Shown here one piece after another: positions 18,981 through 60,423 of a DNA stretch of 64,000 bases. The notes under the pieces are model-generated. The model searched no databases. It saw nothing but the letters and a program-made list of their open reading frames with translations, and was not told the DNA's origin. Position 1 is the stretch's first letter; every line of letters starts with the position of its first letter. Source of the stretch: Amphiscolops sp. MND2022 (taxonomy: Eukaryota); NCBI GenBank assembly GCA_964187785.1, contig OZ076409.1, positions 64,668,001-64,732,000 on the forward strand, in the 5' to 3' direction. Both the position numbers and the translations under genes were made by a program.

Positions 18981-19141
18981 GATTCGTCTTCAAATTAGCT
19001 CATCTCAAGCCCAGCACGCTTTATTCAAAATTTTTATTTAGAATGGCGCTATTTGCAATTATTTTGATTTTTACTTTTGACGAAACCCCCCTCAATGTTT
19101 ACTAAAAACGAAACATTTTTGCTGGCATGCCATTTTTGCTG

Positions 19142-24780: not shown

Positions 24781-24806
24781 TAAATATGTAATTGAGTACT
24801 CATGCA

Positions 24807-25764
24807 TGATACTCGAACGGCAAGCTGTCGCCATTCATTCTGCGCCAATAGAGAGGAAAGAATCAATGACATGGGTATATGACCGGACAAGTACCCATAA
24901 CCATAGGCCCATTTTCGTCCTGGAGTAAAATGTCTCCCGTCAGGAGGAGATTCCACCTCTCAGGAGCACTTGCCGACATGCTCTAGTCTTAAGTGCTGTC
25001 ACTGACATAAATTATGCTATTCTTCTTCTTCAAAATCAACGTCTAGACAGCCTTTAAAAATGAAGGTGGTATGGTGCCAAAGGTAAATTCTTTCAGAATA
25101 CAGGACATCAAGAAATCAAAGCTCACGAGCTAATGCAACAAAAAAACACGATAAATAACAGCATCATTGACAATCTACGGCAAATAGTAACGGAACACAA
25201 GCATAGCATGCTTGATTAAGCAAAGAGACACATTCAATGCAATCATTACTTTGAGAAGGATTTTTTTAAAGAAAGCGTCAGTCTTATGCGCGGTCTGTCC
25301 TGGCAAGATTTGCAGTTTGCTTATTGAGAGTTCTCGTGAGAATTTTACGTTCTTTTTGATCTCCTATTTTGGGTCTGCTACGTGGCAGATATGATTCGGA
25401 GACTTCCCAATTCTCCGGAAAACACTTTTTACTGAGACCGAAGCAATTTTTTTGGTAAACAATTGAAAATCGCAGTTGCCTTGTTATTTGATCGAATTTT
25501 TAACCACGATGTAATGCGTGTCCGTTTCATATTCCCCGGAGTCCATGCTGGGCTTCCCCGCCACGCAGGCAGCTGAGTTGCTGCTTGGGAGTATGAAGTT
25601 ATCATGATTCAATCATGTTTTCAATGATTCTTTCTACACATGTTTTCGAAAAGTGTGGGGTTATGCGTCTTAATGTTCGTCCTCCATCGCGGATGTTGTC
25701 ATTCAAGTGTGCCGTTCACGGAATCACGTGTGATTCCATGAATTTTACTATAGCTTGTTATGCT
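24807..25764 (-). repeat. 3' LTR of the minus-strand element (lacks about 435 bp present in the other LTR)
   Basis: Aligns with 32325-33626 except for about 33065-33500. Confidence 0.8.
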
Positions 25765-32324: not shown

Positions 32325-33626
32325 TGAAATGTCTCGATGTAACGGCAAGCTGTCGCCATTGATTCTGCGCCAATCGGATAGAATCTATGACATGGGCATG
32401 TGCCCGGACAGACACCCATAGCCATAGCCCATTTTTGTCCGGGAGTAAAATGTGTCCTGTCAGGTGGAGATTCCACCTCTCAGGAGCACTTGCCGACATG
32501 CTCTAGTCTTGAGTGCTGTCACTATCATAAATTATGCTGCTCTTCTTCAAAATCACCGTCTAGACAGCTTTTATAAATGAAAATGGTATGGTGCCAAAAG
32601 TAAATTCTTTCAGAATACAGGACATGGAGAACTTATAGCTCACGAGCTAATACAACCATAAAACACGATGAATAACAGCTTCCTTGACAATCTACGGAAA
32701 TTAGTAAGGGAACACACGCACCTTTTGCTTGATTGAGCCAAGAGACTCATTCAATGCATTTTTTTACTATGCGAAGCATCTTACTAAAGAAAGCACCAGT
32801 TTGTCATGGCAAGATTTGCAGTTTGCTTTTTGAGAGTTCTCGTGAGAACTTTGCGTTTGTCTTTATCTGCTATTTTGGGTCTGCTACGTGGCAGATATGA
32901 TTCGGAGCCTTCCCAATTCTCCGGAAAACTCTTTTCACTGAGACGGCAGCATTTTTTTGGCAACCAAATGAAAATTGCGGTTGCCTTGCTCCTTGACAGC
33001 ATTTTTAACCACGATGTAATGGGTGCTCGTTTTATACTCCCCGGAGTCCATGCTCGGCGTCCCCATTAGGATACTTATGCCGCAACCAACTAGCAAGACC
33101 TTGCTAGTTCGAATAACATCCAATAAAAACGCGTTCTTATTTCAGATACGCGTTACGAGTATTGCTCGTTACACTGGTTGATTTGGCGTTACGCTTAGTG
33201 ATCAAAATTCAGTAAATGACTACTTTACACTCTCTACAATTACGTACTGTGACTGGTTTCCACTTCACACACGAATGGAAACATCGTTTGGAGTTATTTT
33301 TACTCACGGTGTGTACCAAAATTCTTTACTGGTAATCACTTTTTTCTAATTACGCTCAATGATCTCATTCCGAAATTTCTGATTACACTGTGCATCAACA
33401 TGCACTGTTTGACTAGAATACGGTTCGCTCTCGTCTTACGGAAAATTCACTTTACACTTGATGATAAATTCCACTTTTGCGGCATATGTATCGTAATGCC
33501 CACCAAGCAGGCAGCTGAGTTGCTGCTAGGGAGTATGAAGTTATCATGATTCGTCTTGCATCACGGATGTTGTCATTGAAGAGTGCCGTTGCCGGCATCA
33601 CGTGTGATTCTACAGCTTGTTATACA
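32325..33626 (-). repeat. 5' LTR of the minus-strand element, about 1.3 kb
   Basis: TGAAATG...TTATACA on the plus strand; aligns with 24807-25764 and 35039-36360. Confidence 0.8.
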
Positions 33627-34774
33627 CTGCAAGTTGCAGGTTTGCCTTTGCAGCAACTTGATTGCAACTCGCAGTTCCCTTGTTCATTGAACGAATTTTT
33701 CAATCTTGATATAAGATGTGATCGCTACATACATACGACAAACGATATCTAAAGCACTAAAGAAAAATGAAGAGACATAAGAACCAACAAAAATGCCATG
33801 AAAACGCAAAAGAAATCACGAAAGACCGCAAATACAACGACTGCGGTTTCTGTGGACTACCTTTATTATTCAACACAGATGCCCCGCGAAAGAAGATGCC
33901 TGCAACAACTGGGAAAAAAGCGGACACTTTGCTTGAGTGTCACAAAACTAACTGAAAACAACGCCAGAAAAGTAGTGATGTACACAATGACCATCGATGT
34001 CCAGGCGAAGACGAAGACTATGTTCAATTATGCTATATAGATGTGTCAACGTTTTTATCCAGAAACAATACTATTTTGTACAAAAGCTTTGCAAGACCAC
34101 GTTTCCTTGTTTCAAGATCTTTAAAGGTAATTTTGGGTCTGACGGAGCACATCCAAAGTTCCAATTTTTTTTCCAAATTGCGCCAAACAACTAACCCCAC
34201 GTCAAAAATGAGTCAAGGAAAAAATCTTATAAAAAAGTTTTGGCATCGCAAGTAGAGTTTCTCTTGATGTCGCGAAACCTTCAAAAAAATGGCCCCCAGC
34301 AGAATTCTGACTCACCGAAATTTGACATTTCGTTTTTGTCTCTTTGCTCGAGGAGCCAAACTTAGTGCTTGAATTTTAAACTGTCGTAATTCGTGAAAAA
34401 AATTAACGAAAAAAAGAACGAAAAGAAGCATGGAAAAAGAACGCTGAAACGAAAATATTGGGAAACCACTGAAAACTTAGTTGATTTAGAAGCCTTCTTT
34501 CTGTTTCAAAGATATTGTAATGAAGAACAGCCACAAAAAAACTGCATGTCAAATGCATCAATAGAGGTGTTTCTCAATCATTTATTCTTCGGTTATAAAA
34601 ATAATAAATCTTGGAAACATTTATCGTCGACTGGGGACAATAAAACATGGGGAGCATCTATTTTTTGCATTTACTATTCAAAAGTTTTAGGAGTTTTATC
34701 TTTGTGGAAGCGCGAAAGCCGCCAAAATTACGTAAATCTTTTAAAGAAATGCTAGAACTAACAGGTTGTGTACT

Positions 34775-37510
34775 AACAAAATTCGCAAAGGCAAGGTTAA
34801 AAATTGGTTGGGCACGTGGCGAATTTCTTAAGCCAAACAAGAGGACAGAGAAACTCCAGAATAAAATTGGATAAGAAACTGATATACAAATAAAAAGCTG
34901 CCAGCTCAAAGACAAGAAACAAGAGGATCTACTAATCTCCAAACTTATGACAAGCAACATTGAAAGAACTTCAGCGAAAAATTCATACAAAAGAAAATAC
35001 TAGATATTGAAATATATATGTAATTGAGTACTCATGCATGATACTCGAACGGCAAGCTGTCGCCATTCATTCTGCGCCAATAGAGAGGAAAGAATCAATG
35101 ACATGGGTATATGACCGGACAAGTACCCATAACCATAGGCCCATTTTCGTCCTGGAGTAAAATGTCTCCCGTCAGGAAGAGATTCCACCTCTCAGGAGCA
35201 CTTGCCGACATGCTCTAGTCTTAAGTGCTGTCACTGACATATATTATGCTACTCTTCTTCTTCAAAATCAACGTCTAGACAGCCTTTAAAAATGAAGGTG
35301 GTATGGTGCCAAAGGTAAATTCTTTCAGAATACAGGACATCAAGAAATCATAGCTCACGAGCTAATACAACAAAAAAAAACACAATAAATAACAGCATCA
35401 TTGACAATCTACGGCAAATAGTAACGGAACACAAGCATAGCATGCTTGATTAAGCAAAGAGACACATTCAATGCAATCATTACTTTGAGTAGGATTTTAT
35501 TAAAAAAAGCGTCAGTCTTATGCGCGGTCTGTCCTGGCAAGATTTGCAGTTTGCTTTTTGAGAGTTCTCGTGAGAACTTTGCGTTTGTTTTTATCTGCTA
35601 TTTTGGGTCTGCTACGTGGCAGATATGATTCGGAGCCTTCCCAATTCTCCGGAAAACTCTTTTCACTGAGACGGCAGCATTTTTTTGGCAACCAAATGAA
35701 AATTGCGGTTGCCTTGCTCCTTGACAGCATTTTTAACCACGATGTAATGGGTGCTCGTTTTATACTCCCCGGAGTCCATGCTCGGCGTCCCCATTAGGAT
35801 ACTTATGCCGCAACCAACTAGCAAGACCTTGCTAGTTCGAATAACATCCAATAAAAACGCGTTCTTATTTCAGATACGCGTTACGAGTATTGCTCGTTAC
35901 ACTGGTTGATTTGGCGTTACGCTTAGTGATCAAAATTCAGTAAATGACTACTTTACACTCTCTACAATTACGTACTGTGACTGGTTTCCACTTCACACAC
36001 GAATGGAAACATCGTTTGGAGTTCTTTTTACTCACGGTGTGTACCAAAATTCTTTACTGGTAATCACTTTTTTCTAATTACGCTCAATGATCTCATTCCG
36101 AAATTTCTGATTACACTGTGCATCAACATGCACTGTTTGACTAGAATACGGTTCGCTCTCGTCTTACGGAAAATTCACTTTACACTTGATGATAAATTCC
36201 ACTTTTGCGGCATATGTATCGTAATGCCCACCAAGCAGGCAGCTGAGTTGCTGCTAGGGAGTATGAAGTTATCATGATTCGTCCTGCATCACGGATGTTG
36301 TCATTGAAGAGTGCCGTTGCCGGCATCACGTGTGATTTTACATTCTACCTGTGTTATACACTGCAAGTTGCAGGTTTGCCTTTGCAGCAACTTGATTGCA
36401 ACTCGCAGTTCCCTTGTTCATTGAACGAATTTTTCAATCTTGATATAAGATGTGATCGCTACATACATACGACAAACGATATCTAAAGCACTAAAGAAAA
36501 ATGAAGAGACATAAGAACCAACAAAAATGCCATGAAAACGCAAAAGAAATCACGAAAGACCGCAAATACAACGACTGCGGTTTCTGTGGACTACCTTTAT
36601 TATTCAACACAGATGCCCCGCGAAAGAAGATGCCTGCAACAACTGGGAAAAAAGCGGACACTTTGCTTGAGTGTCACAAAACTAACTGAAAACAACGCCA
36701 GAAAAGTAGTGATGTACACAATGACCATCGATGTCCAGGCGAAGACGAAGACTATGTTCAATTATGCTATATAGATGTGTCAACGTTTTTATCCAGAAAC
36801 AATACTATTTTGTACAAAAGCTTTGCAAGACCACGTTTCCTTGTTTCAAGATCTTTAAAGGTAATTTTGGGTCTGACGGAGCACATCCAAAGTTCCAATT
36901 TTTTTTCCAAATTGCGCCAAACAACTAACCCCACGTCAAAAATGAGTCAAGGAAAAAATCTTATAAAAGTTTTGGCATCGCAAGTAGAGTTTCTCTTGAT
37001 GTCGCGAAACCTTCAAAAAAATGGCCCCCAGCAGAATTCTGACTCACCGAAATTTGACATTTCGTTTTTGTCTCTTTGCTCGAGGAGCCAAACTTAGTGC
37101 TTGAATTTTAAACTGTCGTAATTCGTGAAAAAAATTAACGAAAAAAAGAACGAAAAGAAGCATGGAAAAAGAACGCTGAAACGAAAATATTGGGAAACCA
37201 CTGAAAACTTAGTTGATTTAGAAGCCTTCTTTCTGTTTCAAAGATATTGTAATGAAGAACAGCCACAAAAAAACTGCATGTCAAATGCATCAATAGAGGT
37301 GTTTCTCAATCATTTATTCTTCGGTTATAAAAATAATAAATCTTGGAAACATTTATCGTCGACTGGGGACAATAAAACATGGGGAGCATCTATTTTTTGC
37401 ATTTACTATTAAAAACTTTTAGGAGTTTTATCTTTGTGGAAGCGCGAAAGCCGCCAGAATAACGTAACTCTTTTAAAGAAATGCTAGAACTAACAGGTTG
37501 TGTACTAACA
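34775..37510 (+). repeat. Second unit of a tandem segmental duplication (of 24543-34778) in which the element is reduced to a solo LTR
   Basis: 34775 to about 35540 is near-identical to 24543 to about 25310, and about 35540-37510 is near-identical to about 32810-34778. Confidence 0.88.
35039..36360 (-). repeat. Chimeric solo LTR
   Basis: Same ATGCA/CTGCA flanks as the full element; left part carries left-LTR variants, right part carries right-LTR variants including the 435-bp segment. Confidence 0.85.
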
Positions 37511-37621
37511 CAACCGTACTCGAAAAAGATTAGAAAGGAATCATTGCCACATGGTGTAAATTCAAAATACAGTTACTCCAAATTTTAATATTTTTATCTG
37601 AGAATCGAGTTAGCTACAACA
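37435..37621 (+). repeat. 5' LTR family B (187 bp); truncated duplicate at about 34703-34778
   Basis: Aligns with 48075-48260 with many substitutions. Confidence 0.9.
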
Positions 37622-40313
37622 TGGCGCTGCGAGATTATTCATCGGACAGCGGGAACATGGCAAAAGCAGCCGGAACATCAGCAGTCGCGAAATTGCCAAC
37701 ATATTGGGAGTCGCCAGAATCAGCTGCTAAAATAGAATGTGAGGAGTGGTGGAAGCTGTTCATGGTCGCCGTAACCGCCAAATATTCAATATCGGTAGAA
37801 GAATTACTTCGAACTGTAACAGAGCAAAGACCACGAAATGCGGCCTAACTCAATAATTTGAACAAGCAAGCAGCTGAACAAAAACTAGTCAGTCTATTAT
37901 TCTTATCATTAGGAACTGCGGCAAGAAAAAACCTGACAGACAAAATTCTGTACATGATAATAGCCACAATGTCCATGAGAGAGATTAAAGACAATTGTGA
38001 ACAAGCATTCATGAAACCCCGAAATAGAACATTAGAACAATAGAAATTCTTTGCACAAAAAATGATAGAGAAAGTAACCTCACGACAGTTCTGGCACGCA
38101 TTAACAGGACAGTCAGCCAAATGCGAATTTGGAGATCAAACGGAGAGCCTTATAATGGACGCGTTCATACAAAAAAGGAACAACAAGGCATTACAAGAAA
38201 GACTCAAACACAAAACGTACGAAGGAAGAAGCACAGGAAAACGCGAAATGAAGCTAAACCAACATTCATGGTAAACGAAAACGAAAAACATGCACCAGGT
38301 GTGGATTCGATTTCACAAAAGAACATTTAGCTTGTTGTAACGAAAAGAACGAACAGTGCAGAAGTTGCGATATGTTTCCGCACGAATGTGCAGAATAACA
38401 AAATCTGGCAATTCGGGAGGAAGCGGAAGAAACACAAATCGTGCTAGAATGACACGACTGAATTTAATTGGACGAGAAGACGATCAATTAGAAGTTGGCT
38501 GCGATAACGACAAAGACAAAATGGTATTACACGTTAATTGAAGCGGTAATCAACCTTTCGTAATGAAAGGGAAAGTAAACAAAGAATCATTTACAGCTAT
38601 GACTGATTCAAGATCTCCAATTACAATTTTTACGCAAGCGGACTTACGAAAAATACGCAAATTAGATGTCATCTTCCCCGCTCGACCAATGCTGATCAAC
38701 GACAAATATGTCGATTACAATAATCAACCGCTTAATCTAGCGGGATTCATAACAGCAGACTTACAGTGGGGCGGAAGAACATCAAAAACGCAAGGATAGT
38801 CAACAATCGAGACAGGAAAAGATCACTAAATGGAAGAGACTGGCTAGCAAAACTGAACTTTAGAGTAGATGGAGCAAGTGAGAACAGTGGGAATAATAAC
38901 GCTGTTAATTACATAGATAACCAAAACATTTACATTGAAAAACTTAAACAAAAATTTCCAAATCTATTTACAACACAAGGAAAAATGAAGACTATCAAAA
39001 ACACATTGAGTTCAAGCAAAATGCAATGATTACCCAACAGAAGGGACGAAGAGTGCCACTGCAATGACAGGGAGCAGTAGAAAAAGAAAACGATAAACTG
39101 CTGGGAGAAGAACCAAACATCATCAGAAGAAATGAGGAACGACTGGTTCACAGGTAACGAAATGAAACATGAAAAGTCTGTTTGAGGTGAGCAGAAACAG
39201 AGTGGAGAAGGAAAACAACCAATCACACACGAGCTGGCAGAAAGAAATGAGCGCGAGAAAACGGAGAAAGCGGCAAGTGTGAACGTAGAGAGTAAACAGA
39301 CTAAACAAACAATAAAAAGCATAATTGGTCTCAATTAACGAGAACGACAGCGATAGTAAAACGGACAAAATAAGCTCAAGTGAATCAGAAATGGAAATAT
39401 CAGCTACTGAATTTGCAAACAAACTGCCATTAAGAATTCCAATTTGCTACTCAAAAAATCAAGTTGAGATTCTCTAAACACAAGGGAACTACACGTTTGC
39501 CGCAAATTTCGAAAGCGACGAATTTCACAAAAAAAACCAAGACTAATGAAAACGCCGGACATTACAAAGCTAAACTGATTACCGGCTCCGTGGCGTGAAA
39601 GTTTCGCTGCTTCAGTAGAGACAGCAACGATTACATTTTATTGGACAAAAGACTGGAAGTCCAAAAAGCACTGTGCCCCATTAACTTACGAAGTCTACAT
39701 TATGGCCTACCAGGACGCGACAGCATGCTGGCAACAGTTGAAAACGTATTGTGGCCAAAACTACACCGAGAAGTAGTGGGGCTAGCAAAACACTGCCAAC
39801 AATGCCAAGTATCCGGTAAAAACAAAAAACCAATGCTAAGACAAAAGGAAAGAGGCGACTTCCAACGTGTACTGTTGATCACTACAATAGATGGCCAGAA
39901 GCTAAATGTCTATGAAAACCAAACACAGAGAAAGTAATAGAATTTCTAAAGGAAAACATAGCAAGACATGGAATCCCACAATACGAACGGACCCTTCCAC
40001 AATTTTGAAAAGTAACCGATTCAAACTGTTCTGTGAAACTAGATGAAAAAAGTACGTAGTGTCGCGCTATGACTAACGCTCTAACAAACGGTGCTGTTTA
40101 TATTAAAATGACACAGGCATAAAAGAAACAGGAAATGGAACTAACGTTGTGTGGGAGCGAAGAAGTGAAGGGAATAAAATGGTAATGGCGGCGGCCATAA
40201 CGCGGCGGCCGCGAAGAGAAATAGAATAATAAGGAAGTACTACGCGAGAGGAATTGCACAAGTGAAAAGTTCTATTGTTTACCGCGTAGATTTAAAATTT
40301 TACTGAAACCGTC

Positions 40314-40413
40314 ATTGGCTGTCCGCAAGTCATGCCGGTCTAGGCCCTCCAGCGGAAAGTGCGGAAAGTGCGGAACGGTTTTTATACCGCGCGCACAGGC
40401 TGGAGCTTCATTC
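40314..40413 (+). promoter_or_regulatory. Putative Pol II promoter in the LTR (also at +4901 in the 3' LTR)
   Basis: ATTGG at 40314; GCGGAA three times at 9-nt spacing (40352-40375); TTTATA at 40381; Inr-like TCATTC at 40408, about 27 nt downstream. Confidence 0.6.
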
Positions 40414-40877
40414 TTCCCGCCGAACGGCCTGAGCTCAACTTAACCAGCTCTCTTCCCTCTTCCCTTCTCTTCCTTCACTTCACTTCTCTTCGCTTATTTT
40501 TACTCTTTTCCCCCCTTCACTCCCATTTCCCACTTTCTCTTATTTTCCCTCACTTCCCTCTTCTTACGCTTACCTTAGACTTAAAAAAGTCTATCTCCCT
40601 CTTTGGCTCTTACTTCAGCCAAATCCCCCTTGCTCACAATTCATTCTCTTCCCCTTATCTTCAGCAAATCCTATCTTTGCAAATTTTCAATCTCCTTCCC
40701 AAAAATTTTCTATCTTAGAAAATTTTCCCCAACACTCCTCGGTCTTCGGTTTGGTGAGTCGAAAATATCTTAGATTCTTTTCTCAGTGGAGAGATTTCTC
40801 TCTCCCTTTTTCTAAACCTTTTCTAACTTAGAACAAATTTTCCCGGATACCATTCCGCGGTTTTAACCAGTTCTAAC

Positions 40878-41318
40878 TTAGATTTTTCTCCGCTGATTTC
40901 ACTCTGCGGGTCTAACTGATTTTATCTTAGCATATTTTCCGCTGATTTTACTCCGCGGTTCTACTTAGATTTTTCTCCGCTGATTTCACTCTACGATTCT
41001 AACTGATTTCATCTTAACATATTTCCCGCTGATTTTACTCCGCGGTTCTAACTAAGATTTTTCTCCGCTGATTTCACTCTGCGGTTCTAACTGATTTTAT
41101 CTTAGCATATTTTCCGCTGATTTTACTCCGCGGTTCTAACTTAGATTTTTCTACGCTGATTTCACTCTGCGGTTCTAACTGATTTTATCTTAGCATATTT
41201 TCCGCTGATTTTACTCCGCGGTTCTAACTTAGATTTTTCTCCGCTGATTTCACTCTGCGGTTCTAACTGATTTTACCTTAGCATATTTTCCGCTGATTTT
41301 ACTCCGCGGTTCTAACTT
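40878..41318 (+). repeat. 88-bp tandem repeat, 5 copies (dimer of 39/49-nt subunits), inside the LTR; also at about 45779-46219
   Basis: TTAGATTTTTCTCCGCTGATTTCACTCTGCGGTTCTAAC alternates with TGATTTTATCTTAGCATATTTTCCGCTGATTTTACTCCGCGGTTCTAAC. Confidence 0.95.
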
Positions 41319-42012
41319 TGAATATTTCCTGCTGATTTATGCAGTAAATTTACAAAATAGAATTATCAAGATTTAGCCCTAACCTACGAAATATATGACA
41401 TATATTTATTTCTTTGAAAAGTCTTAAAGCTATTTCTGATCAAAAGAAATAGAGACTCAAAACTATAAAAGTGCTGTTTAAACTAATACAGCTTGTAAAC
41501 TTATTGCTCAATGAATTAGTTTCCTAAAAATAAAGGAAATTTCGATGATTATTTTAATCTTTGCTCCGGATTGTAACAGTAAAAATATTACTTTGGTTGA
41601 AGATAAATTGAATAGTTGAAGCGACTGGAAATTATAAACTTGGGAACTGATACTGCTATGCCTAGTAAATCATAATATGTACTAACACCCATTCCCTTTA
41701 CACAATTCAACGCTTTTGCTAAATTTGTTTTCCCTTCCCAGATAGCTCATTTACGTACACAGCCTTGCACTTACTCACGCAACTTCCTTTGTCCGCACGT
41801 ACACGCAAGGCATTCCTTTTCAATACTACACTGAGTAAGCTATTGAGACTTCCTTTCTCATTTCTAATCTATAAAGGAATGGTCGCCTGAGAATACTTTG
41901 CAAAAAGCAACAGAAGTTTAACTGACTAATACTGATAACAATTGAACTGTCCCTTGAAAGGAGTAAACAGGAAATAGAAAATAGTAAGATTTTATTCATG
42001 CGTGCGACAAAC

Positions 42013-42030
42013 TGGTGCGACCAGTGAGGC
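42013..42030 (+). promoter_or_regulatory. Primer-binding site (TGGTGCGACCAGTGAGG), tRNA uncertain, possibly Leu
   Basis: TGG 3 nt after the LTR end. Confidence 0.75.
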
Positions 42031-42391
42031 AGTTTCTTCAGTAAATGAGCAATCAGTTGGAATCCCTACTCGTTGAAGTTAGGGTTAACTACTCACTCAC
42101 TCTGATTTCAATCTCTACTTTGTTTCTTTGTTTGCCACAATATGTTACAACGTTACCAGGGAAAACGCACATTTCCGAGGTACTCATCAGCAATAGAGCA
42201 CGAAGCCCTCACCGCACAGACTCAGGTATCACCTCACCGGAAAACCAGCAGTTTCTGACGCCCACCTCTCCTGGTCAACCGTCAACCTCCCAACCACCTG
42301 GCATTGAGACACTACTTCAAACCAAAATACAACCACTTGCTATACAAAAATAGCTCCCCTGAACAATTTTCCCAAAGACCCAACTCTGAAG

Positions 42392-42940
42392 ATGTCAACA
42401 ACGTCAAACACTCTCATACTCCATGACGACCCCCAAATAACTCTATCACCTCCAATACTTACAAAGGTGTCTACAAGAGGTGGAATGGTACTTATCAAAC
42501 TGGACCAAATCGCCGTTACACATCTGAGAACAGCCGGGCTGCCACACCCGTTTCACAGAAGCTATTACCACTGGGCTACCACAGGACCCCTTGATTTGCA
42601 ACCTCTCGAATTGCCACCCCTCATAGCAACAGTCAAAATTTATTGGAATGGATGTTCCAAACAAGAAACTAATAAATTTGTATCTGTTTTCGTTGCAATC
42701 CGAGACCCTGACCACAAACCTCTCTCCACCCCCCTCATTGTACGGCTATTTTACAAAAACTTCAAGAACAAAAACGGACAGTCACTGCACCGAAGCTTCA
42801 AATTAACGCCTTCTGGAAATAGCATCGAAGGTGGAATCAAAGACTTCCTGCCCCTCACTATTTTCAACGCTACTCTAGCTAAAGACAATATCGTCTCTTT
42901 CGGCATTCTTATCAAACGCTTCTCACCCCCAGCTCCATAA
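42392..42940 (+). CDS. Stand-alone MATH/TRAF-domain-like protein, 182 aa
   Basis: GMVLIKLDQI, VKIYWNG...KFVSVFVAI and GIKDFLPL...LAKDNIVSFGILI follow the MATH motif order (FxWKI; LxIYPNG...LSVFL; GxxxFIxLxxL...L.DDxLxI). ATG to TAA intact. Confidence 0.72.
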   Translation: MSTTSNTLILHDDPQITLSPPILTKVSTRGGMVLIKLDQIAVTHLRTAGLPHPFHRSYYHWATTGPLDLQPLELPPLIATVKIYWNGCSKQETNKFVSVFVAIRDPDHKPLSTPLIVRLFYKNFKNKNGQSLHRSFKLTPSGNSIEGGIKDFLPLTIFNATLAKDNIVSFGILIKRFSPPAP

Positions 42941-43356
42941 GATACATTTCTACCCTCAGTAGTCTTTGGTACTTTCTCGGACCCTTTCTTCTGGGCAATC
43001 CTCTGATAGCAAAATTTTAAGCAGACAACCTGGACCCACCGGTCTTCCTAGAATACTTAGACTTAGTTTACTATATAGACAACAAAGAAAGACAATTCTT
43101 GTAATTCTCTCCATTGTCTAAAAAAAAAGGCTGCAATAATTCATGTAGAAATCCACAGCTTCGGGCTACACCAACCAGAACTTTGGGTTATCCTCGGTCA
43201 ACACGACCTCAGTTAGCACTTTTCCTTCTCAACAAACTAATCGACTTCATTGATTCGAGAAGAAGAAACAAACTCTCTCCCAGTCTACAATCAATCAGCG
43301 ACAGTTACAGTTGAACCTTCACAAATAGTTGAAGTTAGTTTCTTTCACATTTCCAT

Positions 43357-43635
43357 TTAGGCACTTTTTAACAGTAGTGAGGTTACTACTATAAAATTTT
43401 AACCTCCGCTTAGTGTTAGTGCCCACTAAGCTGTCGGTTTGATATTACGACTTGCCTTTTTACGGCCTTATTACGGATCCACAATCTTGAACAAAACAAA
43501 GAAACAACTAGACTTATATACCTCTTAGGCACGTTTGAACAGTAGTGAGGTTACTACTATAAAATTTTAACCTCCGCTTAGTGTTGTGCCAGCTAAGCTG
43601 CCGGTTTGATATTACGGCTTGCCTTTTTACGGTCT
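43357..43635 (+). ncRNA. Duplicated structured RNA motif of about 111 nt (43357-43468, 43525-43635)
   Basis: Three hairpins and two loop-distal complementarities in both copies; compensatory change GTCG/CGAC to GCCG/CGGC. Confidence 0.6.
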
Positions 43636-43943
43636 CTACTAAAAACTTAGGAACACTTACGCAATTGATTGCAAAAAGACTGAAGATTTTCTAAAATGAA
43701 ATTATTACTCATTTTATTTTTTGCGCCAAATTACGCGCCCGTTGTGATATCACAACGTCCAACCCCAAACCTCGCTAGCGTTGTTAAAAATCTGCGAGTT
43801 ACTCAGTTCCTCTGCTAAGAGATGACCCAAAATAAACTCTACGAGATGAATCAAGTCACCCGAAATAGTGGGTAAAGGCAGACTTGCCGGATACTTGCTC
43901 ACGGGGCACGAACTAAGTCCCCAAACACTGATGGAAGCCTTGC

Positions 43944-44912
43944 TTGGCTTCAACACTGTCTGAAACCCGTCTCACTCCTTCACACAATGAATTAATGATG
44001 CGAACGCATCCCTATCTTCTACAAAAAAGTAGTTGCTTTCGTGAACCCATTGAACAGCAAAACCTATCGTTATACGAACGTGCAAACTTCACTGAATTGC
44101 GCCAAGAACCTCTTCCAAGGAAAAACTTGAAAGACAAAGATTCCTGGTTTACACTTATACTGTCACCCGAAAATTGGGACCTACCAGCTTTCTTCGGAAC
44201 AAAAGACATCCAGCCAATGATTACCAGGTCCTCCCCTGGATCACAATATACAAGAATGTACACCCCAAACAACTATCTGATATTTGGTCCAGCATCCTCA
44301 TTAGCGCAGCATCAATGAATGCCCTTCAGAAGTTTTCCAGCGAACTCAGTGTACCCTCCATGGCTCACATCAAAAAAAAAAAGATCAAAATGGAAGATGA
44401 AAATGAGCGAGTAGAACTCTAAGAAAAATCAAACTGCCCATCCGTGTAGAGATTTGTTACTCCAATCTAAACAATCTAAACAATGTTTCACTTTTACTAA
44501 TTGCAACCTATTATTCTACATACCAAACCTGGACGACGACACCCTTGATCCAATCTTAGAAGACTATCTACACTTTGATGAACAACTACGAATCTACCCA
44601 AACAACTTCACCCTCCCTCGAGCATGGCCTTTCGACCGACAAGTGGAAATCTCCATCATAGATCAAAAGGACAGAAACAATAAGTGGTCTACCTACTTCC
44701 CAAACAACTCTGACAAGACCTACCTAGATGACACCAACATCAGCGCTTACACCCTTCCTCACCTCACGCGAGAAGATTTCATCCCCCAAACAAAACTTTT
44801 GGTCAACTTCAGAGAAGCCTTCTTAAACAACGACTCTATAACCCTCCAAATTAAATTTAACGAAGCCCCCTTCACAATCCCAAGTGCTAAAGAAAGCCCC
44901 CCTCATTTCTGA
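43944..44912 (+). pseudogene. Second cargo gene, apparently frameshifted, with a C-terminal TRAF-type MATH domain (44454-44912 open)
   Basis: AWPFDRQVEISIIDQ resembles TRAF LxWPFxxKVTLxLLDQ; DFIPQTKL...AFLNNDSITLQIKF resembles the MATH C-terminus; the expected upstream strands (IRVEICY...VSLLLI) lie in another frame at about 44440-44505. Confidence 0.65.
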
Positions 44913-44948
44913 CCCACTCCTCCTACCCCATCCTCTTTTCTCCCTGCC

Positions 44949-44960
44949 AGGGGGGTGAGC
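44949..44960 (+). promoter_or_regulatory. Polypurine tract (AGGGGGGTGAGC)
   Basis: Immediately precedes the TGT of the 3' LTR. Confidence 0.8.
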
Positions 44961-46910
44961 TGTCGCGCTATGACTAACGCTCTAACAAACGGTGCTGTTT
45001 ATATTAAAATGACACAGGCATAAAAGAAACAGGAAATGGAACTAACGTTGTGTGGGAGCGAAGAAGTGAAGGGAATAAAATGGTAATGGCGGCGGCCATA
45101 ACGCGGCGGCCGCGAAGAGAAATAGAATAATAAGGAAGTACTACGCGAGAGGAATTGCACAAGTGAAAAGTTCTATTGTTTACCGCGTAGATTTAAAATT
45201 TTACTGAAACCGTCATTGGCTGTCCGCAAGTCATGCCGGTCTAGGCCCTCCAGCGGAAAGTGCGGAAAGTGCGGAACGGTTTTTATACCGCGCGCACAGG
45301 CTGGAGCTTCATTCTTCCCGCCGAACGGCCTGAGCTCAACTTAACCAGCTCTATTCCCTCTTCCCTTCTCTTCCTTCACTTCACTTCTCTTCGCTTATTT
45401 TTACTCTTTTCCCCCCTTCACTCCCATTTCCCACTTTCTCTTATTTTCCCTCACTTCCCTCTTCTTACGCTTACCTTAGACTTAAAAAAGTCTATCTCCC
45501 TCTTTGGCTCTTACTTCAGCCAAATCCCCCTTGCTCACAATTCATTCTCTTCCCCTTATCTTCAGCAAATCCTATCTTTGCAAATTTTCAATCTCCTTCC
45601 CAAAAATTTTCTATCTTAGAAAATTTTCCCCAACACTCCTCGGTCTTCTGTTTGGTGAGTCGAAAATATCTTAGATTCTTTTCTCAGTGGAGAGATTTCT
45701 CTCTCCCTTTTTCTAAACCTTTTCTAACTTAGAACAAATTTTCCCGGATACCATTCAGCGGTTTTAACCAGTTCTAACTTAGATTTTTCTCCGCTGATTT
45801 CACTCTGCGGGTCTAACTGATTTTATCTTAGCATATTTTCGGCTGATTTTACTCCGCGGTTCTACTTAGATTTTTCTCCGCTGATTTCACTCTACGATTC
45901 TAACTGATTTCATCTTAACATATTTCCCGCTGATTTTACTCCGCGGTTCTAACTAAGATTTTTCTCCGCTGATTTCACTCTGCGGTTCTAACTGATTTTA
46001 TCTTAGCATATTTTCCGCTGATTTTACTCCGCGGTTCTAACTTAGATTTTTCTACGCTGATTTCACTCTGCGGTTCTAACTGATTTTATCTTAGCATATT
46101 TTCCGCTGATTTTACTCCGCGGTTCTAACTTAGATTTTTCTCCGCTGATTTCACTCTGCGGTTCTAACTGATTTTACCTTAGCATATTTTCCGCTGATTT
46201 TACTCCGCGGTTCTAACTTTGAATATTTCCTGCTGATTTATGCAGTAAATTTACAAAATAGAATTATCAAGATTTAGCCCTAACCTACGAAATATATGAC
46301 ATATATTTATTTCTTTGAAAAGTCTTAAAGCTATTTCTGATCAAAAGAAATAGAGACTCAAAACTATAAAAGTGCTGTTTAAACTAATACAGCTTGTAAA
46401 CTTATTGCTCAATGAATTAGTTTCCTAAAAATAAAGGAAATTTCGATGATTATTTTAATCTTTGCTCCGGATTGTAACAGTAAAAATATTACTTTGGTTG
46501 AAGATAAATTGAATAGTTGAAGCGACTGGAAATTATAAACTTGGGAACTGATACTGCTATGCCTAGTAAATCATAATATGTACTAACACCCATTCCCTTT
46601 ACACAATTCAACGCTTTTGCTAAATTTGTTTTCCCTTCCCAGATAGCTCATTTACGTACACAGCCTTGCACTTACTCACGCAACTTCCTTTGTCCGCACG
46701 TACACGCAAGGCATTCCTTTTCAATACTACACTGAGTAAGCTATTGAGACTTCCTTTCTCATTTCTAATCTATAAAGGAATGGTCGCCTGAGAATACTTT
46801 GCAAAAAGCAACAGAAGTTTAACTGACTAATACTGATAACAATTGAACTGTCCCTTGAAAGGAGTAAACAGGAAATAGAAAATAGTAAGATTTTATTCAT
46901 GCGTGCGACA
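44961..46910 (+). repeat. 3' LTR, 1950 bp
   Basis: Direct repeat of 40060-42009. Confidence 0.97.
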
Positions 46911-48074
46911 GTAGAATGTCCCATTCGTGACCATAAAGGGAACGGTAAAATAGAACGACTAATTAGAACAATCAACGAACAATTAAAAGCAAAAAAGAAC
47001 GTAATTATCAAAGTAAATAAAAGGACGCAACTGGGCTGTGTGAAATACTATTCCAGCTGAGAATGAATCTATCAGCCAATAAGAAATCACCTAATGAAAG
47101 ATACACCGGAAAGGAACCAAATACGATAAAAAGACTGGTAACTAATCACCCTCGGTTTATTTTAGAACACCCAGAATTCAGCATCACTGAATAAGACTTT
47201 GAACCCGAACAGGACTCAACAATTTTTGGCCGCGAACGAACGAAAGGCTCAAAGCTCGAGGGAACATACAAAAAGATAAAGTCAGTACTGCTCGAACAAA
47301 ACAACTACACAATAACTCGCTTGCCAGCAGGAAGATCATAAACGACCGTAATCTCGAAAAAAAAGTGGGACAATAAATACACCATGTTGTTCAAAACGGC
47401 GACAATCGCAAAAGATGCCAAAAACCAACAAAATGGCAGAACACGAAGAAACGGCAACAAGCGAGGATGAGTCAAAAACAACGACAACATCAACCACACT
47501 GAGCAAACAAAATCAAAGGGACTCAACAACTCAAACAGAAATGACGGTAATAAACGAAAACGCGAAAAAGAAGCAAACAAAGGCATTGACTACTTTGAAA
47601 CAAAAAATCCGAAAAAGACAACAGACAGAACGTCACAAAAAGACAAAGCAACTACAAAACCAATGGATTGAACAAAATACGATTCAATCAATGTCAGAAA
47701 ACGACGAGAATGAAGAAGCTAACCAAAACCCAGAAAACCCAGGGAGTGAGAGAGAGAGAGACAAGAGAGACAAGAGATCGAAAATCAACAAGCTGGAAAC
47801 AACCAGCAGGTAGACCGAGAACAAAAACACGCCAATACTCAGAGAAGAAACCCAACTTGGCCGAAATCGAACGTTGCCGCGACCAAAAAACCGAAGCAAA
47901 CCCAACTTCTTTGCCCTAAAACGCTGGATCACCTGAGCACTAAAAACCTTAGTGCATTTAAGCACTGAAACATTAAAATTTGAGTTGCTACATTTATATT
48001 ACTTACCATTCGCCTTCACATACAGAGTACTGTAAATACGTAGACCCGAGTTCTTTTCCATAAATTGTGGGAGA

Positions 48075-52290: not shown

Positions 52291-55200
52291 TGAACAGTAA
52301 GAAGAACTTAGAGGACAAACTGTTATGAGATTTATCCTATTTATGTAATTAGTCTCAAGTACCTGCTACCATTTTATCATTATTGATCTTACTCAGTAGC
52401 AAATGATTAGAGAAAATATACAGTTTTGTTACGATACTAAATTCTTATAATCTGAAGTTAGAACGTGGCGCAGTCAGTGTCAGTTTAACTGACAATTACA
52501 ACGGAACTAGCTAACAACTACCCACTGCAAACAACTCAACGAATAAGCAATTCCACCAACACCTCTCCACAGACGGGAGGACAACAGAATCGGGTAACCG
52601 ATCACTCTACAAGCAGCCGATTGATACCCAATGAGACAACACTGAGAGCGGGTGAACGGACATGCACTCAGAAATTATCCATTCCAAGTCTAGAGAAACA
52701 TCATAGTTCCAGTGCAAGTCTTTGGTGGCGGACGTTTGTACAATACATCAAAATGACAAAAGACAGCGACTTGTCAACTATGACAATTCGAAAGAAATAC
52801 TGCCACAATTCCGTGACCAATTGGAACTCGAGATAAAAGATACATTCCTATGGGCGATCGGACAACGTGCACTCACAGAAATGAACAAAAACGGTGAGAT
52901 AACGGGAACCCAGCGCCTTACCGTTACATAATCTGTACACTCTTTTCCGACTGCACTTTACCCCAGAAAGGAATGTAGAACATAGCCGGACCGATTTGTT
53001 TGATTAAAAAAGAGAAACTAACGAAACAGCCGCAGATGTATGGAAAAAAATCTAAGACTTCGAAAAGAATTGCGAATTCGTGACAACAACAGCAGCAGCC
53101 AATTTCATAGCTTCAAAACTCAGTAATAGGAAATTCCACGGGGATTATGAGCTAAAGAAAGAGATCCGAAGAGTGATATGTCTGTAGAACCAATCAGAGA
53201 CGCAGTACATGAATATATGTACGAAAAACTAAACGAATCACCTGAAACAGAAGAAGAAACAAAAATCAGACACATGGACAAAAATAATTAAAAAATAGTA
53301 AAGAACAAATCGAACGATACTCGAAATAAGACGACTAAACTGCAATAAACAAGGAGCACCTAACTGGTCCAAGAAACATGAATGTCCCGCAAGAGGTAAG
53401 AAATGCATCAAACTAGGTAAATTGGGACATTACGCAAAATGTTGCAGATCAGCCAGGAAAATGTACCATATAGCTGATGAAGAAGCATACAGCGCAGATG
53501 AAGACGACTGGATACCAGATGGAATACATTCAATTCAGCGATAGATACACTCAATGGGATCAAAAAGCAAGAACGAACTACCGTTCTACACCAAAACATT
53601 ATTGGTTAATAACCGACCAATAAAATTCATCGTCGATACAGGTTTTCCGGTAACAATAATACCGAACACAAGATTCAACAAAATAACCACAATTGGACCG
53701 GTATTGGAAGATTACCGGGATATAAACGACAACAAAATAAAGTTCGAAGGTGAAAGCATGGCCAAAATCGAAATCGACGGTAAAGTTAGAGAACTGGAGC
53801 TATTGATAACAACCAAACAAACACATCCATTACTCGGACTCAACTGAATAGAAAAACTGGGTATAACACTGAAAACAGAAGCTCCACACCAAACAGTCAA
53901 TCACATTGCCACTGAAAACAGAAGCTCCACACCAAACAGTCAATCACATAAACAAACCGGACCTAGTCAACAACAGACCGAACGCAGACATAAAAAAACT
54001 AAAAAATAGGTTTCACAATTTTTTCACAAAAAACCACAGAATAAAAAATGTAGAATTAGATATCCAACTAAAAGAGGGATCAAAATTGTTACAGCAAAAG
54101 GGTGGGCCATCCCTATTCACTTACAACCCGCGGTAGAAAAAGAAATAGGAAAACTGAAAAAAAGGACACATCGACAAAGCAAAAAACATTGACGAAATCT
54201 GAACTGTTTAGTAAGCCCAGCGGTGATTACAATCAAAAAAGATAAATCGGTGAAAATAGCATTAGACTCAAAAAAATTGAATGAAATAACTATAGAAAGA
54301 AAGGCACAAATGCCAAATATGGAAGAATTAGTACCAAGAATTTCCAGAAAAATACCAGACGGAGCAGCGGATGAAATCCAGATTTCCAAATTTGATCTCG
54401 ACTACCAATACGGCCTATTACAAACAAATCTCAAAGAGAGCAATGGAACTAAGCATATTTGCAGTTACCGGGGGGGAATTTTCACTGGATACTATTGGTT
54501 TTTAAATGGCTTTTACGGGCTAGCGGATATCCCGACGAAATTACAAGAAAAAATTGACTGAACACTAGAAAACATACACCCAGTCTGGCCGGAAGACATA
54601 ACAAAAGGCTCCAAACAAAAACATATGGACGAGTTAATGGACGTACTATCCAAATTAGAGAACACAGGCTACCGCCTGAGCGAAAGCAAACCCAAACCAT
54701 TCAAAGCAAAAATAGAGTTGATTGGTCATAAAATAGACCAGAACGGAATCCGATTGTTGCAGGACAAATTATTCGCGATCAAGGAGTTGAAAACACCGGA
54801 AAACGGAAAAGAAATAAAGTCTTTTTGGGGGGCAATTTAATACTTGTCCAAGTATACTGAAAACCTTTCAGCTCAAACGGACATTTTGAGACAACTGCTC
54901 AAAAAAGAGACCAAGTGGGAATACACTGAAGAGAATACAAAAGCATTTGAAAATTTGAAACAAAAAATCGCGGAGATACCGTGCCTGGCACACTATAATT
55001 CGAACTATCCAAATATTAAAGCAACGGACGCAAGCACAAGAGGCCTTGTGGCCACGCTCTGGCAAGATAAACCAGACGGTAAATTGAAACCGATTGGATT
55101 TGCCAGTCGCTTCTTTTCCAATACGGAAAAATATGCCATTATTGAATTCGAAACACTCGTGGTGCTTTGGGGACTTGAGCGTTTTGACCTACATTTTTAC

Positions 55201-58200
55201 AGGAACCGATAAAATCGCTCACAGAACACCAAGCTTTCGAACCACTGATTAAAGGTAATCGTTCGAACAAAACTTACAGTGCAAGAGTAACGAGATGGCC
55301 GGACCGGCTAGCTCACTTCTCAAATAACGTAAGTCATATAGCCGGCAAGCACTTAGCAGTCACGGATGATCTCAGTAGAACTCCGTTCGCATCACCGCAA
55401 ACTGTTGACACATACGAAGAAGAATAGGTGATCAACAGCATCATATGGCATTACAAATTCATGACCAAATATGGTTGCCTTAGCAACCATCTAGACCAAT
55501 CACAAAGCGAGATATTACGTAACGAACCGAAACAAACCAAAACGCGTGAACAAACTGTCGTTGCTTGCCATAATCGGTCGACAAAAAGCTGCGTAAATTC
55601 CCGACTTACAAAAGGTAATTCAAAAATGGATGCACGCACCATCGACAACCTAGAACTCGCTGATCATTCCGCGGAAACCAGAAACCTGGTTACACACTGG
55701 CGAGACATAGTTAAACCCGGCGTCTACAGACAAGCCGGCGGCCGGTGGAAAAAACACCACGAGCCCAGATTGCTCCCAAATGAAAGACAAATCAAAGAAG
55801 AGCAACTACAAATAGCTATCCGGATCATAGACAACGGACAAACAAATCAGCCTCAGGGCTTCCAAGTACGAGAAAGACGGAATGAACAGTGGACAGTGGA
55901 TTCCTCCTAGTAGGTAGACCGCCCAAAACGCCAACAGCCACAACAAGATTACGATCCCGGACCGTCTTCAAAACAAACACAGTACACCCCGATAGAAGAA
56001 GGCGGAATTGGTTCGGAGACCAAGACCCGTCAGTATTGGAGGTCCCGGCAGTCAATTGGGCAAAATAGGTGGCCGTCAAGAGCGTCCAATACATAAAAGT
56101 GGGATACGCAACGAAAGTGGACGCAGAGGAACCAAATGATAGGGACCTGTGGAATGCCTCAGGGAGACAGAAAATCAGTTCGCCACGGAATTGCAATTAC
56201 TCATGACGGAGACAACAAAGGATCCCAGCCTACTCAAAACGCTCGTCTGCATAGTACGACAACAGCATAACGACATGCATGATGAACACTCCTTATACGA
56301 AAAGAAGCTATCAACCAGATACGGGCTGGTTTTCTACGAATACCGGATAATAGTCCCAACGAACCTAAGGAAAACCGTCATCAGCCACCTACACAAGGGA
56401 CACCCAGATACAAACAAAATATCAATGGCGGCGAGACAGTTCTCCGAAGCCATACCGAAGTCATACAGAAGAAATGCGGAAGTTGTGTCTCTTGCAAAAT
56501 GTCCGGTAAGAACATCAAACCTAATATACCTAGTACGGAAAAAAATACCACCAGTAAGTAGACCAAACAAATAAATCCAATTGCATTTCATCGGTCCAAT
56601 CACTGAGAAGAACCATAGATTTCATATCATGCTCTCTAATAACCGGCTTAGTAAATGACCGGCAGTCAGTTTCTGCAAAACAACTTAAGACCAGACAGCG
56701 GTCACGTTCTCGGAACTATATATAAATCTGAACGGCGAACCCATAAACGATTAGAAACAATTAGAGACAAGGATGAGGCGACCGCGTTTGTTTGGAGAAT
56801 TTTGCAAAAACTACCAAATAAACGTGATATACGGCACACCGTATATACACACACCTACAGGACTAGTCAAACGGGGCGTTATAACGTTAAAGGAAATGTT
56901 ACAAACAAACATAAAAACAGGCGAAAAATTCGGTAAAGAACTAGATATCGCACTGGATGTAATGCGGCAAACTCCCCACACACAATTAAACAAAACCGCA
57001 TTCGAGCTACATTATAGTCGTGAACCAAATGAGGGAATCAGTGATTTATGAAATCCGGACGGGTTGAAAACAATAGCGAAAACGTGTATTTCAGCAAAAT
57101 CAGACACCCTACAGGTGTACTCGTTCAACGGATCTGACAGTGTTTTCGACTGATGAAGCAGAAGAAAGGATCTAAACGAGTTACAAATTATCTCTTCTTT
57201 TTTCACGAAAAAAAAGTAAAACCGAAAATTGACTGTGCATATTCCAATAAAATCCAACTGGCTGTATCGGGACCCAATCACGCTGTTACGACGGCCGATA
57301 ATAGAATCTTACATAGAAAACATAAATAAACCTATCTCTGAACTAACACAGGAACCCAACAACAGAGGAACAGTGCCACGTGGACCGGATGGCCGGTTTA
57401 TGAAATCTCCCCCGGCCATTCACCATACACGACTCGGACAACGAATCCGAAGATTCGGAACCGGAGACTCCAGCCACAACTAACCAGAAAAAAGCGGCAC
57501 ACTGGGAAGAGGATACAACCACCAAATGTCGGACTCACCAGGGGTCACCACAAAGAAGCCAGTCGCAAGCAATTACTGGACCGTTGACCATAGTGGCGGA
57601 GAACATGACAAAGAAGATGTAGACCGCGCTATTGAGGATGCTAAAAAGGCAAATACAGAGCTACATATTAAAAACAACAACGGCAAGGTATTTCAAAATA
57701 ATTTTGAAATCCCCGAAAGAGGGGAGGAAGACGAAGAAATAAGGAAATTGGACAAAAATTCTGAACTAGAACTGTTAAGCAATGTAGCAATGTTAGCTCA
57801 AGCACCGGAATAGAACAACAAACAAAAGAATATAGTTTACGTAGATCAAAACGGTTGACAACAACGAACCCGGTTGTTAGACTAAATAACCCAGGACCTT
57901 CCGATCACAGGAAATACAGTCAAAAGACTAAACAACCGCGAAATAACACCAGACACCAGAGACAACAACTAAATGCACCCGATGAACGAGCCTGTCCAGA
58001 AGGAAACCACAATGACCGGACCACAACCATGGATACAGCGCGGATTACCGCGGCGATACATTTGCTTGGGCCGGACAACCGCCACCAAAGAAAACAACAT
58101 CCACTATTTGGCCAATTCTTGCCCAATTGCAGAGAGTCGAATGAAGAGTAAGAAGAACTTAGAGAACAAACTGTTATGAGACTCTATCCTATTTAGGTAA

Positions 58201-58307
58201 TTATTCTCAAGTACATACTATTAATCTTACTCAGTAGCAAATTTTAGATCAGAGATAAAATACAGTTTTGTTACGATACTATATTTTTGTATTCTGAAGT
58301 TACAACA
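52291..58307 (+). mobile_element. Full-length decayed Gypsy family C (Mag-like)
   Basis: LTRs 52291-52465 and 58142-58307 (TGAA...TACAACA); perfect CCCCT TSD; PBS TGGCGCAGTCAGT at 52466; gag, VDTG protease, RT, TDAS RNase H and LHKGHP integrase with many stops and frameshifts. Confidence 0.93.
53867..53949 (+). repeat. 40-bp perfect duplication with a 3-nt spacer inside pol
   Basis: CACTGAAAACAGAAGCTCCACACCAAACAGTCAATCACAT twice, separated by TGC; single in the related copy at about 62040. Confidence 0.9.
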
Positions 58308-60423
58308 CCCCTTCGTTTTTCAAAAATATTTTGCAACAAGCTGGATTTTCAAAAAGCCCGTAGGGTCCCCCCTTTTACAGTTTTGAAAACTTAGCGCTTT
58401 TTGAGCCTTAGATATAGCGCCGACTTTAGACGTTCCCGTCTTGTTTATAACTACAAATAGATCTTTTTCGTTATCTCTTCAGTCGGGTTGGTTCATATTG
58501 GTTGGGACAAAAAAGTTTTCAGTTCACTTTGTACAATAGTTTTTGAAATGTTTTTCTTTCTGATCAAAAATTTTTTATCACACGATCAAGGCAACAAATG
58601 GCAGTGTAGATGTTTCGAATTGCGAAGATTTAAACAAATTGGGCATTAGTTTATTTCGATTTTCCTGAAATTTCATCAGGCTTGCTTGCTTTTCAATTTT
58701 AAAAAAGTTCTGGAAAAATCTTCTAAATCTCACTGGTCTTTATTTACTCTGGTGTTTGAACATTATATTCCTTGCTAGGATTTTGTAAGAAAAATCAATC
58801 AATTTCTTGCCAGATTTTTTGTCACTTTGTTTTTAAAGAATATATTACAGACATGGATCGTGCAGGATTTTTCCAGGAACCCGTGAAAGTTGCATTACCG
58901 TTCCAGATTTTGAAAATTTTTGACAAGATCCTGGAAAAAAGCTATTTTTGTCAGCCAGAGTAACCTAAGCGTCCGATGTGTTTTTTTCCTCTCGCTCAAA
59001 AAGTTCATATGTCAGTTCCGCCAACAGTTACTCTGAAAAAACTCTTGGAAGAAATATATTCAACTTGAAGAATAACAACTCACTGCCTTGTTTGGATCCA
59101 GTGATAAAAAATTCTGAAGCTTAAATTTAATCATCGACATTTGCGTATCAGTCTGGCAAAAAATAAACTTTGCTTGACCTATAAGCTGCAATTTTTGAAG
59201 CCACATTCCGATTGAACTAACTCCTAAACTTCTTTGATTATTGAGTTGATTGCATGATTGTGTAATGCATGAAACTGAAAACAAACACATTTAACTTCAC
59301 TTTGTAATTTTCAAAAGAGCCATGCAAAAAAGAGAGACTTTCGAATATTCGTTTCGTAACTTTTCCGGATGCAGCAGTCAGCTGAAAATTAAATTCATTA
59401 AATGGGTCAATCCCCATAACCCGCCTTCATCCTCTTACTTGTAAGCATCTTTGACATTGGAATTCGACATGAAGAAATGTCTCTCGCATCCACGGAAGTA
59501 TTCTCGCAAGAAGTGCTTTGTAAGTGAGTGATTCATGTGCTCGTCCGAACTGGCTCAACCATTTTTTCTGACACCCCCTTTAAAAAGGAGTTCCATAAGA
59601 ACTATTCAACTCTCGTTAAAACATGCACGTTTTCGATAAACCTATATAAATTGTTCTGTAAACCGAAAGTCGGTTCGAGAACTATGGCCGCGTTATTAAA
59701 ACACAGGCTAAACTTTTTCAGAGTCATTTTTTGAGTCAAATCATTGAAATAGTCACATTGATGTAAAAAATTTCAAAAACGTTCAATTCTGGAAAAGAAC
59801 CAAAAATGGACCCAATTTTTTCCCGAAATTGTCGAAACTCAAGCATGAATTTTCAAGATAGTCTCGTATAACTTATATTTTAAAGGTAGTCGTTTTTTTA
59901 TAATTTTTATTATTTCACTGATTTTATTTAGAGTCAAATCATTGAGTTAGTCACATTGGTTTAAAAAAATCAAAATAACGGTCAGTTTTGAATAGAAACC
60001 TGATGAATCTGATTGGAAATGTTGACGAAGTCTGGAAAAAATTTCGGAGGTGTGAAAAAAAGCCTAAGTTGGCTGTCGATGGCGCTGTTGACAATCTTGT
60101 GGTTGTATTTCAAAGACTCGCCCTGAAGCAGCTTCTCTGGGATATCTTCCTCCACAAAGGTATCCAAGAAGAGCCGGTCACAGCTGTATGAGAACATATT
60201 TTCACAAGCATCTGAAACAACCGATCTGAAAAGTGTATCAAACTATGCATAATACCAATAGTATGCAAAATATCAGTACCTAAAAAAACCGTTTCTATAA
60301 TTTTTAGTTGGCGTTATTTAAATAGTAACAAGCTGAATGCTACAGTGGCTTCTCCAATCGCACACTGGAAAGTCATTTAGAATCATTTCTTCAATTTCTA
60401 AGAGGAATTTATCGTACTTCAGC

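Follow-up and report, generated by a model that had tools for sequence, protein, structure and literature searches.

An LTR element without recognisable gag or pol carries an intact ORF with a predicted MATH/TRAF-C fold in Amphiscolops sp.

Within a 64,000-nucleotide stretch of the Amphiscolops sp. MND2022 assembly (GCA_964187785.1, contig OZ076409.1, positions 64,668,001 to 64,732,000, forward strand; hereafter the window), an LTR element of 6,851 bp (40060-46910) carries ORF1, an intact gene whose 182-aa product is predicted to be a single MATH/TRAF-C domain. We propose, with a probability of roughly 45%, that ORF1 is an old capture from host genes encoding lone MATH domains, that it has been kept by selection, and that its product is a competing binder of the partners of that family. 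MATH cargo in LTR elements is already known from Burro/GYPSM1, giant gypsy-like LTR retrotransposons of planarians that carry MATH_TRAF_C; in the sections of the Burro review cited here, the domain forms a separate upstream accessory ORF in Dugesia tigrina, and its action on apoptosis or ubiquitination in the host is a proposal only (PMC6431247). Both are LTR retroelements with a MATH/TRAF-C domain, predicted in the present case, whereas Burro, as described in those sections, is autonomous, exceeds 30 kb and contains BIR, BCL2 and ankyrin motifs alongside its gag-pol-env polyprotein (PMC6431247). The element described here, in contrast, is 6.85 kb long, has no gag, pol or env, and retains the MATH gene as its sole intact long ORF.

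LTR retrotransposons are marked by direct LTRs with TG...CA ends, a target-site duplication (TSD), a primer-binding site (PBS) and a polypurine tract (PPT). The element around ORF1 has TG...CA direct LTRs, a TSD, and PBS-like and PPT-like sites, which rules out a segmental duplication in place of LTRs. The LTR pair and the GTAG duplication enclose ORF1 and confirm the location in an element that had been suggested by a first, sequence-only reading of this DNA. The features are as follows.

40056..40059, no strand: left target-site duplication, GTAG
40060..42009, plus strand: 5' LTR, 1,950 bp, TG...CA ends, 8-bp terminal inverted repeat with 1 mismatch
40870-41338, plus strand: 88-bp tandem array of 5.3 copies in the 5' LTR
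42013..42029, plus strand: PBS-like sequence starting with TGG, 3 bases past the 5' LTR
42045..42353, plus strand: 102-aa upstream ORF in a different frame, without a Pfam match at cut-off
from 42142, plus strand: second upstream ORF, 38 aa
42392..42940, plus strand: ORF1, lone MATH/TRAF-C-fold protein (fold predicted), 182 aa, ATG at 42392, stop ending at 42940 (Pfam and structure model)
43357..43635, plus strand: internal direct repeat, two ~112-bp copies, 93% identical
43918..44912, plus strand: ORF2 remnant, pieces in different frames (Pfam, tblastn)
44415-44912, plus strand: 165-codon frame of ORF2 without ATG
~44571-44861, plus strand: C-terminal half of a TRAF-C domain within ORF2
44949..44960, plus strand: PPT-like purine-rich tract abutting the 3' LTR
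44961..46910, plus strand: 3' LTR, 1,950 bp, 4 mismatches against the 5' LTR
46911..46914, no strand: right target-site duplication, GTAG

Since the LTRs are 99.8% identical, the insertion is recent. The 2,951-bp interior contains five frames of at least 100 codons, none of which has a Pfam match to reverse transcriptase, integrase, protease or gag, and tblastn of the window's own intact gag-pol protein found no match in the interior. We infer that the element is mobilised in trans by an autonomous Ty3/gypsy helper; within the 64-kb window there is no helper sharing its PBS or LTR, and there are no tRNA genes. The element resembles LARDs, which the cited part of a plant study describes as exceeding 4 kb, with LTRs, PBS and TSD and no transposition enzymes (PMC13570524). 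It has the LARD size and lack of enzymes (6,851 bp, none) but departs from the traditional non-coding interior: LARDs in that part of the study are mainly non-coding or hold fragmented ORFs (PMC13570524), whereas this element codes for an intact captured ORF with signs of selection. An Rfam scan of 40000-47000 gave 0 matches. On its left the element borders the decayed remains of a gypsy integrase region, and tblastn of the right flank gave no match. A 77-codon frame (46827-47060) has a part, at 46899-47060, that starts inside the 3' LTR and runs into the right flank; the cluster member P0045 similarly extends from ORF2 into the 3' LTR.

ORF1 is intact on the plus strand from its ATG to its stop, as the sequence-only reading had reported, and first-order resampling of the element interior produced an ATG-initiated ORF of such length in 5 of 2000 trials. 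Two upstream ATGs (42045 and 42142) precede it. Pfam MATH_2 matched ORF1 weakly (E 0.008; 16.9 bits, cut-off 32), and its relatives scored up to 29.3 bits. No MATH chain was recovered when PDB sequences were searched with ORF1, either by phmmer or with a profile. A MATH/TRAF-C sandwich has 7-8 antiparallel strands. An AF2 model based on a 21-row alignment (pLDDT 78.9, pTM 0.74) shows a core of eight strands together with two helices and a conserved additional strand at the N-terminal side (residues 25-29), and agrees with the MATH fold that had been supposed. The best 13 Foldseek matches to this model were all TRAF1/2/3/5 domains (E down to 3.8e-7). Among 48,161 chains compared with VIA-align, the eight at Z of at least 8 were all MATH/TRAF folds (TRAF1, TRAF3, TRAF6, two of USP7, meprin and two of SPOP); TRAF1/3/6 scored Z 11-12.5, with TRAF1 as the top match (Z 12.5, rmsd 2.9, 137 aligned). 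Iridovirus TRAFs were the best named matches among viral models, and MATH clusters in the ESM Atlas at 0.91-0.92 give a weak lead only. We conclude, as a prediction, that ORF1 folds as a MATH/TRAF-C sandwich.

The product also appears to be a single domain as first described, given that neither Pfam nor the model shows a RING, BTB, coiled coil or peptidase. RING and zinc fingers are a canonical TRAF trait, TRAF1 being without RING; ORF1 has no Pfam match to either and contains one cysteine only. Regarding the TRAF-N coiled coil that precedes TRAF-C, the model has no helix before residue 39. The Pro-rich ends claimed for the protein apply to its last 5 residues only, the N-terminal 21 being a low-confidence Ser/Thr-rich tail.

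According to the sections of the TRAF study cited here, TRAF2 reads receptor motifs at three hot spots, namely a hydrophobic pocket, a polar pocket (R393 and Y395) and a serine finger carried by the strand 6-7 loop, and the TRAF-N coiled coil is the stalk of the functional trimer (PMC6125299). ORF1 is similar to the TRAF1/2/3/5/6 TRAF-C domains described there in its predicted beta-sandwich, its strand-3 motif and, as it seems, its polar-pocket positions (PMC6125299), with Lys82 and Tyr84 of strand 3 falling at the latter when mapped by eye on TRAF5 sequences. However, unlike these domains, ORF1 has no coiled coil, RING or zinc fingers, it has the extra N-terminal strand at 25-29, and its strand 6-7 loop is ~5 residues long against ~17 in TRAF5, as judged by eye from the model and sequences. 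This mapping of the groove was done by eye because the aligners returned no residue pairs.

These comparisons bear on a classical dominant-negative role, the form taken here for the dominant-negative binder suggested by the sequence-only reading, in which a RING-less lone TRAF-C domain would occupy the receptor motifs of canonical TRAFs and block NF-kB or death signalling. Such a role is consistent with TRAFs 1, 2, 3, 5 and 6 being the best structural matches, with a Lys/Tyr pair that looks retained at the polar-pocket positions, with the presence of a second captured TRAF that is intact in other records (see below), and with the inhibition of TRIF signalling by overexpressed RING-less TRAF1, as given in the cited part of PMC3697994. 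However, ORF1 is 11-18% identical to TRAFs, it lacks the trimer-forming stalk, and its nearest relatives are already lone-MATH proteins. The serine-finger loop also looks lost, which weakens the dominant-negative reading at canonical TRAF receptor sites, and we consider this reading very unlikely.

The relatives of ORF1 argue for a capture from lone-MATH genes instead. Fifteen of 96 candidates match ORF1, representing 60 distinct sequences in 15 clusters, 36 of them in the closest cluster, although these counts may span both haplotypes or more than one assembly. The exact ORF1 protein is present on 5 contigs, and identity to ORF1 is ~90-100% in subfamily A, 77% in B and 51% in C. Near identity to a host exon was looked for and none was found, all close matches being further copies. 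Relatives are known from protein sequences alone, and intact copies are favoured because the database contains only called ORFs. Nonetheless, of 42 lineage proteins compared, 23 span the core and 19 are partial, so that many copies decay. Three subfamily-C proteins (P0011, P0043 and P0059) have different N-termini that switch at one shared point; two of them share a short phenylalanine-rich stretch ending in Gln right before this point, which could reflect a splice acceptor.

A length-free search returned 18 matches. One of them, P0066, is a mucin-binding repeat protein of 3,471 aa and was discarded as spurious; the other 17 are relatives that do not exceed 309 aa. Twelve of the matches are lone-MATH proteins of 153-309 aa (family P0051-P0065) with 27-40% identity to ORF1 over the whole core. 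These low-copy relatives have 1-2 member sequences per cluster, and two appear to share contigs. We found no longer fused forms among 8,000 scored candidates of 542-2000 aa, which is weak evidence, and no related loci among 45 pattern matches in viral contigs and 268 in metagenome contigs. A lone MATH had initially been regarded as unusual, a premise that is now weakened: the nearest outside relatives have this architecture, and MATH-only proteins are a recognised host subtype in the cited portion of PMC12785250. Their single MATH with a variable N-terminal tail is shared by P0051-P0065 and ORF1 (PMC12785250), whereas ORF1 differs from both in being multi-copy, element-borne and shifted in composition. 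Judged by their sequences, the low-copy relatives are likely a host family of MATH-only genes. They also have the short strand 6-7 loop and no coiled coil, and because they share both, the lone state and reshaped groove of ORF1 were probably inherited from the host family rather than cut from a TRAF at capture. Likewise, the source gene probably already lacked a RING and a coiled coil when it was captured, since the nearest relatives are already lone-MATH proteins.

The sequence-only reading had also suggested long residence in the element, based on a C/A-rich, G-poor coding strand. The measured base composition agrees with this (A 0.31, C 0.30, G 0.15; third-position G 0.11), and the LTR, the element interior and the window's gag-pol are G-poor on the same strand, too. 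In the A, B and C cores, a fraction of 0.20-0.23 of the residues has G-starting codons, versus 0.26-0.33 in 12 of 12 distant relatives, and a 24-row tree places the multi-copy lineage (A, B and C) on one side of a 0.98-long branch (support 100/100), both of which support long residence. Because this tree is unrooted, with a midpoint root only, the host-to-element direction of transfer is a matter of inference. The opposite flow, with the low-copy relatives domesticated from older elements, or a benefit to the host from an element that amplifies a useful gene, would suit a tree without a true root and low-copy relatives called as unbroken ORFs on long contigs, their cores seeming intronless for this latter reason. 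However, the low-copy set is more diverse and does not have the element's compositional shift, and inserted copies gather neutral-looking changes and truncations, making both options highly doubtful.

Selection on ORF1 was evaluated at the protein level using 17 A, 3 B and 4 C rows, with conservation scored on 12 distant rows; most truncated copies were omitted, and the closest cluster was entered with 15 of its 36 members. Differences between A and C avoid conserved columns (30 of 79, versus 47 of 80 variable columns; p 0.011), as do those between B and C (32 conserved versus 48 variable; p 0.017), whereas the tendency for A and B is not significant (13 of 79 versus 20 of 80; p 0.24) and singletons are even (26 of 79 versus 26 of 80; p 1.0). 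Mean BLOSUM scores were +0.27 for A/B differences (P 0.009) and +0.23 for A/C differences (P 0.0006), compared with -0.41 for random single-base changes, while singletons averaged -0.69. The TRAF half of ORF2 compared with whole TRAFs was near-neutral (-0.18 to -0.47; expected -0.29). At this level, changes fixed between ORF1 lineages look selected, and single-copy and ORF2 changes look neutral, which suggests purifying selection on ORF1 in active lineages. Selection between lineages combined with neutral single copies is what one would expect to see if a gene benefits active elements. Subfamilies B and C were read as proteins only, and their placement within LTR elements is assumed.

Alternatively, ORF1 could be a passenger, captured from the host without benefit to the element and intact as the copy is very young, with the conservative subfamily differences having arisen in host paralogues before separate captures. 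The near-identical LTRs, neutral singletons, partial lineage proteins (19 of 42), upstream ATGs, and the reading of B and C without genomic context are all in keeping with this. However, A, B and C lie together on one side of the long branch and are all depleted in G-starting codons, and ORF2 has decayed in the same element while ORF1 has not. We therefore regard a passenger as unlikely. Another option is that the protein serves the element's own cycle by binding the helper Gag or a particle-assembly factor, favouring packaging of the non-autonomous RNA. ORF1 is the sole long conserved ORF of a helper-dependent element, selection is seen between lineages and not on inserted copies, and the fold is a peptide-binding module. 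Against this, no helper was found in the window and ancestry in a likely host family suggests host partners; we give such a role little credence.

Under the preferred reading of ORF1 as a captured competing binder, the gene would be an ancient copy of a member of a lone-MATH gene family of the host. It would be translated, and the predicted TRAF-C-fold product would compete as a peptide binder for the partners of the host lone-MATH proteins, and so damp some step of signalling or ubiquitination in those host cells in which the element is mobile. By analogy with accessory genes of satellite and giant viruses, the helper-dependent element might also be a gene-carrying satellite that shed its replication genes, with selection on the captured adaptor and a second, independently captured TRAF once aboard; its protein would win helper packaging or blunt the host response against retroelements. 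We hold this scenario to be possible but rather unlikely.

The first description of ORF1 as stand-alone needs amending: the element has a second TRAF-type segment at 44415-44912. Pfam detects MATH_2 (E 3e-4) and TRAF-mep_MATH (E 3e-3) in this frame, and 8 of 11 candidates match ORF2. An intact second MATH can be ruled out for this copy, which has no ATG, matches only over the C-terminal half and has a predicted model, from a mixed alignment, with pLDDT 39. Three of the matching candidates and one cluster member (P0021, P0022, P0024 and P0048) are whole TRAF-C ORFs above Pfam cut-offs and RING-less, and three of these four are 68-77% identical to ORF2 in their C-terminal half. They are closest to TRAF5, which for P0048 is the nearest solved structure (E 5e-7), and have a short upstream segment that is coiled-coil-like by eye. 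The TRAF5-like cargo suggests that the eukaryotic host is likely an animal. These four ORFs likely represent the intact form of the second cargo, and are likely a better classical dominant-negative candidate than ORF1. A profile comparison of ORF1 with the TRAF/ORF2 proteins found no similarity, which rules out duplicates of a single capture and makes separate captures likely. Two contig sizes (474,716 and 456,556 bp) are each common to ORF1-type, whole-TRAF and ORF2-type proteins, and a third (49,705 bp) is common to ORF1- and ORF2-type proteins; this size match of contigs, the basis of the comparison, suggests that longer element versions carried both ORF1 and the TRAF gene.

Capture of extra ORFs by animal LTR elements has precedent in rotifer LTR retrotransposons, although the accessory ORFs in the cited part of that work encode env, a GDSL esterase or a DEDDy exonuclease, and the elements have gag and pol (PMC5408684). 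The main text of PMC3597677 mentions neither TRAF nor MATH. In the open-licence literature we found no description of an element that lacks gag/pol yet keeps a MATH-only ORF, which does not prove absence. The sections of the Burro review cited here do not settle whether MATH/TRAF cargo does anything (PMC6431247); in the present case the element is small and recently active, and the cargo is its sole intact long ORF. Selection, expression and partners are directly testable here, given the many copies, the several subfamilies, the likely host paralogues and a decayed neighbour that can serve as internal control. If selection holds at the DNA level, a non-autonomous element would maintain a protein gene for its own spread, unlike the usual picture of a non-coding passenger.

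Elsewhere in the window, a Ty3/gypsy gag-pol region of ~5.72 kb is duplicated head to tail at positions 1-11507 (98.8% identity), with an intact 1,829-aa ORF in the first copy (133-5622) and the second copy in pieces. At 52291-64000 there are two copies of a gypsy pol, both decayed, with 76% identity between them. A 173-174-bp tandem repeat is located at 15660-16235, and a 140-bp palindrome, whose arms are 91% complementary, at 19139-19278. A ~2.7-kb tandem repeat (96% identical) is found at 24543-25559 and 32341-37513, with related pieces upstream; three of its units carry TGTCGC, the hexamer that opens the LTR of the MATH element, with no wider similarity.
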